UHGV virus genome: UHGV-0173928
DNA length: 38,281 nucleotides
Source: a virus
Reading direction: 5' to 3' (one strand)
Made by a program: the position numbers and the translations under genes. Of this stretch, positions 26,884 through 27,306 are shown piece after piece (position 1 is the stretch's first letter; every line of letters starts with the position of its first letter). The notes beneath the pieces were generated by a model that worked only from the letters and a program-made list of their open reading frames with translations, did no database searches and had not been told where the DNA came from.

Positions 26884-27306
26884 ATGTCATTCTTTTCTAC
26901 ATTAAAAACAGCTTTGTCTTTGAAGGAGAAACTTGCTGCTACTGGTGTTCTTGTTCTGATTTGCGCACTTGTTGGTGCTGGGTTTGCGTGGGAACGTCAT
27001 CAGCTAAAGCAAGCCATGGAGAAAATTGGCAGTCTTGATCAGGCTGTTAAGGAACGTGATAAGTCAATAATGGATCTTAACCAGACCATTGAGACGATGA
27101 ACAAAGCAGAGCAACATTTTCACAGCCAGGAAGTGAAAAATGAATCAGAACAAGCCAAGTATGCTGACAGGCAAATGGAACGAAAAGCTGAAGTTCAGAA
27201 ACAACTTGTTGCGGCGGGTAATGTTCGCCAGCGTATTCCTGCTGACACTCAGCGGTTGCTCCGGGAGTCGATCAGCGAATTTAACGCCGACGCCGACAAA
27301 GGTTAA
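26884..27306 (+). CDS. membrane-anchored coiled-coil protein
   Basis: MSFFSTLK start with single hydrophobic segment (VLVLICALVGAGFAW) followed by charged helical region. Confidence 0.5.
   Translation: MSFFSTLKTALSLKEKLAATGVLVLICALVGAGFAWERHQLKQAMEKIGSLDQAVKERDKSIMDLNQTIETMNKAEQHFHSQEVKNESEQAKYADRQMERKAEVQKQLVAAGNVRQRIPADTQRLLRESISEFNADADKG

Follow-up and report, generated by a model that had tools for sequence, protein, structure and literature searches.

The locus studied here raises the question of why a lipoprotein gene should begin inside the 3' end of the gene that precedes it, in another reading frame, and of which codon it begins with. It lies in the virus genome UHGV-0173928, the whole analysed stretch of which, 38,281 nucleotides (nt) long, is called the window below. 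The present analysis indicates that the locus is very probably the ppfA/mlp pair of a P1-like phage-plasmid, i.e. a two-component spanin in the "overlapped" arrangement, with ppfA coding for the inner-membrane component (i-spanin) and mlp for the outer-membrane lipoprotein (o-spanin). This confidence refers to the identity and the architecture of the pair; the start codon of mlp is weighed separately. The two genes and the ribosome-binding site of the first are the following.

26884..27306, plus strand: ppfA, predicted i-spanin; ATG at 26884, TAA at 27304-27306, 140 amino acids (aa)
26873-26878, plus strand: Shine-Dalgarno (SD) sequence AGGAGG of ppfA, 5 nt before the ATG, with an anti-SD duplex energy of -10.3 kcal/mol; also given in the supplementary table of PMC6139136
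27140..27472, plus strand: mlp, predicted o-spanin, longest open reading frame (ORF) from the first ATG; 110-aa precursor, mature from Cys40

Judged by its sequence, the window represents a P1-like phage-plasmid. A 1.2-kb stretch around the overlap has 97.9-99% nucleotide identity to phage P1 records (97.9% to NC_005856) and to hundreds of P1-like plasmids of Escherichia coli and Salmonella, and the gene order, upfC-upfB-ppfA-mlp-upfA-oriR-repA, is that of P1. In NC_005856, ppfA is annotated as "possible periplasmic function" and mlp as "membrane lipoprotein precursor", the limits of the latter enclosing the same 333 nt. In profile searches, PpfA matches PHROG 89 ("Rz-like spanin", E=1.2e-25), while Mlp matches PHROG 30284 (likewise "Rz-like spanin") end to end, over residues 1-110 of 110 (E=2.6e-77). 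The two proteins are thus members of the P1 spanin families (gp064 and gp063, respectively).

The comparisons below are based on 70 distinct P1-like sequences together with diverged lineages from Salmonella, E. coli, Cronobacter, Klebsiella aerogenes, and metagenomes (L003/L089-091, L092/L004/L123/L124, L005/L093, L121, and L122), whose PpfA is 47-64% identical to that of the window and which align without gaps over ppfA. A contig scan with the PpfA alignment returned two near-identical loci, and a scan of viral contigs near-identical P1-like loci only; further lineages were obtained by repeating the query with diverged members and by exact-protein look-ups. One diverged match added by the metagenome scan, L120, was left out of the comparisons as decayed.

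The predicted features of the two products together are the hallmarks of an i-spanin/o-spanin pair. PpfA has a single N-terminal transmembrane segment, residues 17-35 (nt 26932-26988), with a Kyte-Doolittle maximum of 2.35 over LAATGVLVLICALVGAGFA. Its periplasmic part comprises 103 residues, 47% of which are Glu, Lys, Gln, Arg, or Asp, and contains no Cys. An AlphaFold2 model is all-helical (helices 13-83, 87-110, and 120-139, with breaks near 84-86 and 111-119); the model has low confidence (predicted local distance difference test, pLDDT, 58; predicted template-modeling score, pTM, 0.22) and was used for secondary structure only. PpfA thereby shows the topology of an i-spanin, which is anchored in the inner membrane as a type II protein by one N-terminal transmembrane segment and has a mainly helical or coiled-coil periplasmic domain. 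The corresponding landmarks of Mlp are as follows.

27248-27259, plus strand: lipobox L-S-G-C of Mlp, with the codon of the lipidated Cys at 27257-27259
27335..27337, plus strand: Cys66, the further Cys of mature Mlp, periplasmic and within AFMCRMPEF, a motif conserved in all lineages

The lipobox is preceded by the hydrophobic stretch VMFASVFLLTL. The mature protein would have 71 aa and begin with CSG, and because the +2 residue is Ser and not Asp, sorting to the outer membrane is expected. Mlp therefore has the marks of an o-spanin, namely small size, a lipobox of the pattern [LVI][ASTVI][GAS]C, and a +2 residue other than Asp. In the relatives the lipobox reads LSGC, LNGC, LSAC, LNAC, or LVAC, and its Cys is invariant in eight lineages. 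Spanins are further expected to contain at least one periplasmic Cys for an intermolecular disulfide, a rule described in PMC6139136. Mature Mlp has two Cys residues, one of them besides the lipidated one, and periplasmic PpfA none; the Cys in question is thus Cys66 of Mlp, which is a candidate for a homotypic intermolecular disulfide.

The geometry of the two genes is that of an overlapped pair. The mlp gene is read in the +1 frame relative to ppfA ((27140-26884) mod 3 = 1), starts inside it, and ends 166 nt beyond its stop codon. The out-of-frame overlap of these genes, reported in the first-pass annotation, is hereby confirmed, and the limits proposed there, 27140-27306, are exactly those of the maximal overlap. 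Its statement that the length depends on which Met is used is also borne out, the overlap being 167 nt from ATG 27140, 146 nt from ATG 27161, 101 nt from TTG 27206, 98 nt from TTG 27209, and 86 nt from ATG 27221. The Cys codon sits 47 nt 5' of the ppfA stop, such that the first 15 full codons of mature Mlp are within ppfA and the 16th spans the stop. Since the Cys codon and every candidate start are inside ppfA, the overlap cannot drop to the 1-4 nt typical of translational coupling. This speaks against the idea that a Met just before the signal peptide might reduce it to a coupling-type distance: Met 27221 still leaves 86 nt and is specific to the P1 clade, the codon being ATG in most P1-like sequences, GTG in L077, L095, and L008, and CTG, CTT, CTC, or CTA in all diverged lineages.

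The overlap had further been called unusually long for simple translational coupling. This is correct, since it is too long for stop/start coupling, but among overlapped spanins its length is not unusual. In the spanin literature the class includes T5, with an overlap of 70 bp, and Jersey, with 155 bp, while 8 bp counts as "separated"; 86-167 nt is therefore typical of it. In the 2018 survey (PMC6139136), 228 of the 528 two-component spanins are overlapped, P1 and P7 among them; its supplementary table lists P1 as "ovl", with gp064 and gp063, no periplasmic Cys in the i-spanin, and one in the o-spanin. The earlier reading did not recognize the layout as the standard one of overlapped two-component spanins, represented here by the known P1 ppfA/mlp pair; the overlap is already catalogued and ordinary for its class. 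The arrangement spares coding space.

In order to see how far the two frames constrain each other, ppfA was divided into three regions: U (codons 1-85), where there is no overlap; A (codons 86-108), which overlaps mlp only if the distal ATG is used; and B (codons 109-140). The latter two correspond to the following stretches.

27140..27208, plus strand: region A, the 23 codons by which the long mlp form is extended at its N terminus; evolves as ppfA-only coding sequence
27209..27303, plus strand: region B, the true dual-coding stretch, encoding the signal peptide (M/L)RRVMFASVFLLTLSG, Cys40, and the first 15 mature Mlp residues together with PpfA residues 109-140

The synonymous divergence of ppfA, taken as the fraction of same-amino-acid codon pairs that differ among seven lineages, is 0.49 in U, 0.48 in A, and 0.26 in B. 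Compared by column (Mann-Whitney), B differs from both U (p=0.0015) and A (p=0.012), whereas U and A do not differ from each other (p=0.94). A codon table of five sequences places the switch at codon 109 (Fisher test of U against B, p=0.0006). In the mlp frame, the mean amino acid identity over the seven lineages rises from 0.32 in A to 0.58 in B and to 0.75 in the part 3' of the ppfA stop. Within the P1 clade, seven of the ten polymorphic sites in A are silent in ppfA and nonsynonymous in mlp, compared to 3 of 23 in B. Protein-level dual coding is thus confined to about 27209-27303, with joint constraint beginning at about 27209 and not at 27140.

That the +1-frame ORF is a chance open frame in and after ppfA, and not a gene, is extremely unlikely. 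From the codon table, a gene rich in Glu, Lys, and Gln offers few opportunities for +1-frame stops in region A, and several gene callers omit the ORF or shorten it to 46-65 aa without the lipobox, which might suggest such an origin. However, eight lineages retain the ORF together with its signal peptide and lipobox, without any change of the lipobox Cys, and it is the part 3' of the ppfA stop that is best conserved. Because the ORF persists across diverged lineages and synonymous change in ppfA is suppressed in the shared stretch, mlp is a real gene.

The possibility of a programmed +1 frameshift fusing PpfA to Mlp into a 195-aa protein that resembles a unimolecular spanin was also considered, since PpfA-Mlp fusion ORFs of 193-195 aa are present in public sets (P0002, P0037, P0057, P0063, P0065, P0069, P0086, and P0087). 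Their junctions, however, fall at six different positions of the overlap with no shared slippery site, and in the fusion the lipobox would end up internal, midway along the protein. The scattered junctions fit indels of 1 nt or misassembly, as any +1 shift in this region leaves an open frame, and programmed frameshifting was rejected as having next to no likelihood.

The public records of the relatives show other irregularities at this locus. In several of them the o-spanin is called as a 46-65-aa ORF that starts past the lipobox, and the lipoprotein signal is lost (e.g., L003-L006, 2501-2698); in MH422554 (L002, 2133-2273), a shortened ORF of this kind is labelled "outer membrane lipoprotein Rz1". 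The locus is thus a case of gene callers mishandling overlapped o-spanins, either as short ORFs of 46-65 aa without the lipobox or as fused ORFs of 195 aa. It should also be mentioned that the decayed L120 copy of ppfA-mlp (metagenome contig ERZ1643250 NODE-5528, about 850-1600; protein P0008) has stops and frameshifts in both frames, so that some P1-like elements seem able to lose the spanin pair. Beyond the existing annotation, the value of the present results is small and consists of the minimum overlap of at least 86 nt, the dual-coding boundary at 27209-27303, and a comparative basis for settling the signal-length flag on P1 Mlp that is discussed next.

The following sequences are relevant to the start of mlp.

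27128..27133, plus strand: SD-like AGGAAG within the invariant ppfA codons Q82-E83, 6 nt before ATG 27140; duplex energy -5.0 kcal/mol
27209..27211, plus strand: TTG, candidate proximal start, which would give a 16-residue signal peptide, MRRVMFASVFLLTLSG
27221..27223, plus strand: ATG, candidate start nearest the hydrophobic core; its signal would be 12 residues long and lack positive charge

On balance, translation of mlp appears to begin mainly at the distal ATG 27140, a preference that we hold with modest confidence. This is the sole candidate with a good SD sequence and spacing. Equivalent distal SD sequences are AGGAGG in L003 (-10.3 kcal/mol) and AGGAGGTG in L004 and L122 (-11.6 kcal/mol), and that of L005 has a duplex energy of -7.1 kcal/mol. 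An in-frame distal ATG is present in every lineage, 1-2 codons past a +1-frame stop in all but L003, and it is accompanied by an SD sequence of -5 to -11.6 kcal/mol, except in L121, whose own distal ATG has a value of -1.9 kcal/mol. In L122, the codon equivalent to 27209 is CTG, and the distal ATG is the only ATG, GTG, or TTG 5' of the Cys codon. Against a synonymous-codon null, the per-lineage p values for an ATG accompanied by an SD of the observed strength are 0.26, 0.20, 0.075, 0.15, 0.12, and 0.076, which combine by Fisher's method (calculated by hand) to about 0.02-0.03; this supports the distal start, but is suggestive only. The supplementary table of PMC6139136 lists the P1 o-spanin in its 110-aa form with the SD "AGGA" and states that the "LipoP server finds cleavage site at 39th position".

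A number of observations weigh against the distal start. The 39-residue lipoprotein signal that it implies is atypical, and in the same table the curators commented on the P1 protein "Too long signal sequence". The 23-codon extension shows no sign of protein-level constraint. In the diverged lineages the distal ATG is one codon later (27143-equivalent; AAT-GAA vs GAT-GAA), and L122 is a single 3.2-kb metagenomic contig. Since the distal ATG and its SD fall in the conserved PpfA residues QEVK[ND][ED], both may be by-products of that sequence; when synonymous codons are resampled, chance alone supplies an upstream ATG in 29-95% of the trials, depending on the lineage. Conservation of the distal or of the proximal ATG was for this reason rejected as decisive for the start, as the resampling shows both to be fairly likely by-products of the PpfA sequence.

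In the alternative scenario, the spanin pair is the same but mlp is translated only from TTG 27209 and/or, in the P1 clade, from ATG 27221. The overlap would then be 86-98 nt, the 110-aa annotation a longest-ORF artefact, and 27140-27208 just ppfA. We consider this a serious possibility, to be given somewhat less than an even chance. The constraint boundary is located exactly at 27209 (synonymous divergence falling from 0.48 to 0.26 and mlp-frame identity rising from 0.32 to 0.58), and the 7/10 polymorphisms of region A noted above are silent in ppfA yet change mlp. The codon at 27209 is TTG in all 70 unique P1-like sequences and ATG in seven diverged ones (L003, L092, L004, L123, L124, L005, and L121), and the product, MRRVMFASVFLLTLSG|C, has a textbook lipoprotein signal, 16 residues long and with an n-region of charge +2. 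The survey curators' flag on the long form points in the same direction, as does upfB, which the P1 reference also annotates from its longest ORF, 19 codons before the start given by homologues and by the PHROG profile.

Initiation at these codons would, however, be poorly served by the surrounding sequence. Codon 27209 is without a usable SD: the duplex energy is -0.5 kcal/mol in P1-like sequences, and -3 to -6.5 kcal/mol in the relatives, there with a 13-nt spacing. Moreover, TTG is a weak initiator, and an ATG at this codon is expected by chance in 53-68% of cases when PpfA residue 109 is His or Asp. ATG 27221 has a G-rich tract (GGCGGG) only 2 nt upstream, would yield the short signal without positive charge described above, and is not a start codon in any diverged lineage. 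Finally, L122 has CTG at the 27209-equivalent, which leaves the distal ATG as its only canonical start.

A third option is that the 39-residue signal is indeed made from the distal ATG, its freely varying 23-residue basic extension being kept for the sake of the sole usable ribosome-binding site within ppfA, or that both starts are used. This we regard as unlikely. If both starts were used, two precursors with different n-regions would result, which could tune the speed of export and maturation of the o-spanin, similarly to the dual-start motif of holins. The biological stake of the choice between the starts is small in any case, because all of them yield the same 71-aa mature lipoprotein after cleavage by signal peptidase II.

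As an observation on the window itself, positions 27206-27208 read TTG (Leu) instead of the TGG (Trp) of P1. The TTG is a minority variant, present in 10/70 unique P1-like sequences; the change creates two adjoining in-frame TTGs (27206 and 27209) and is silent in ppfA (CTG to CTT).

The lysis mechanism that we infer for PpfA and Mlp is drawn by analogy with lambda Rz/Rz1 and P2 LysB/LysC. PpfA, of type II topology, would sit in the inner membrane by its single N-terminal transmembrane helix and extend a long helical domain into the periplasm. Mlp would become a small outer-membrane lipoprotein once signal peptidase II has cleaved before Cys40; in the long form, the signal peptide removed would have 39 residues, the first 23 of which form a basic extension free to vary. 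The periplasmic parts of the two proteins would bind each other and bridge the envelope, and the complex would be held in check by the peptidoglycan mesh. After removal of the peptidoglycan by the endolysin Lyz, it would fuse or disrupt the outer membrane, which is the last step of lysis.

A 2022 study of P1 lysis (PMC9025707) assigns the spanins of P1 to ppfA and mlp, "partially overlapping" genes whose operon is not linked to the remaining lysis genes; the i- and o-spanin labels are swapped there. Several points weigh against the spanin assignment. It rests in that study on predicted features (citing Summer et al. 2007). The pair is not adjacent to the holin or endolysin genes, the lysis genes of P1 being scattered (PMC9025707), and there is no canonical lysis cassette: the neighbours of ppfA/mlp are upfC (PAAR), upfB, upfA, and the plasmid origin with repA. 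Knock-down in P1 by CRISPR interference (CRISPRi) gave efficiencies of plating of 0.24 and 0.19 for mlp and of 1.3 and 1.2 for ppfA, and both genes were scored as non-essential for plaques. In Pfam, neither protein matches Rz or Rz1, PpfA giving only weak sub-threshold matches of coiled-coil type and Mlp none, such that the pair is outside the lambda Rz/Rz1 families. It is also outside the P2 LysB family TIGR03495, where PpfA reaches 19 bits (E=0.0013, residues 23-97) against a cut-off of 92.75.

These points would also fit envelope proteins with another role, such as a lipoprotein expressed by the prophage that acts in exclusion or modifies the surface, or a factor that modulates when lysis occurs, in which case the spanin-like topology would be coincidental. 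The separation from lyz, lydA, and lydB is in line with this, and the P1 record predicts sigma-70 promoters 5' of ppfA and goes no further for mlp than "possibly involved in regulation of lysis (by homology)". Such a role is nevertheless improbable. The full set of hallmarks (type II membrane protein, helical periplasmic domain, overlapped outer-membrane lipoprotein, and periplasmic Cys) is conserved together, both proteins match spanin PHROGs, and PMC9025707 names no P1 spanin candidates besides ppfA/mlp. Regarding the CRISPRi result, spanins are dispensable for lysis in shaken laboratory cultures (PMC9025707). Regarding the location, adjacency to holin and endolysin genes is common among spanins but not defining, and the spanin genes of T4 are likewise unlinked to them.

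The features downstream of the spanin pair are these.

27484..27876, plus strand: upfA, the gene 3' of mlp
27889..27915, plus strand: terminator-like hairpin (27889-27905) with T-tract after upfA, found by consensus scan

The hairpin is likely the 3' end of a ppfA-mlp-upfA transcription unit. With this exception, the promoter and terminator scans of the window were at chance level, the consensus scan having found 4 terminator-like sites where 2.6 were expected. The hairpin stem at 27889-27905 lies between upfA and the P1 plasmid origin oriR (window ~27897-28138), which contains five 19-bp RepA iterons (incC, about 28035-28138), a DnaA box, and a GATC cluster, and which is followed by repA (28176..29096; Rep3 WH1/WH2 domains).

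The slot 3' of the spanin pair varies. It holds upfA (PHROG 1453) in the window and in P1, a Gp49-family gene (PF13876) in Salmonella, E. coli, and Cronobacter relatives (L003, 2709-3062; L004, 2697-3062; L123, 2100-2459), and in the metagenomic L122 (1501-2345) a Tad2-like gene (PF11195, by name an anti-Thoris anti-defence family). This variable slot, adjacent to the plasmid origin, is a possible hot spot of accessory genes. On the 5' side, the longest ORF of upfB (25999..26844, P1 reference) overlaps the PAAR-motif gene upfC (25763..26047) by 49 nt, while the PHROG 1559 profile and other records start upfB at Met20 (ATG 26056, MLEKDY...), 8 nt past the upfC stop. The annotated upfB start thus looks like a longest-ORF artefact, in parallel to the question of the mlp start.

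Finally, the locus can be compared with known spanin systems. It is the same as that of ppfA (gp064) and mlp (gp063) in P1 and P7, with the same neighbours (upfB, upfA, the oriR/incC iterons, and repA), the same 140- and 110-aa ORFs, the +1 frame, and the maximal overlap of 167 nt; with respect to P1 there are only point differences, such as I45M in PpfA and W23L in Mlp, the latter being the TGG to TTG change at 27206. As in P2 LysB/LysC, the prototype of the overlapped class, the o-spanin gene starts in the +1 frame within the i-spanin gene and ends past its stop, and a type II membrane protein is paired with an outer-membrane lipoprotein. The two pairs have no significant sequence relationship, however, and the P2 genes are part of a lysis cassette, unlike those of P1. 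Lambda Rz/Rz1, which is embedded, is likewise a two-component system with a +1-frame o-spanin, and the same mechanism following peptidoglycan degradation is expected. It differs in that Rz1 is wholly within Rz, whereas mlp extends 166 nt past ppfA, and, as stated above, in the Pfam families. In phage 21, of the lambda family (PMC6139136 table), the i-spanin has two Cys residues, and the Rz1 homologue has a 19-residue signal, as compared to 39, 16, or 12 residues in Mlp depending on the start. The separated pair of T4, pseT.3/pseT.2, resembles ppfA/mlp in being located away from the holin and endolysin genes, but the T4 genes do not overlap.

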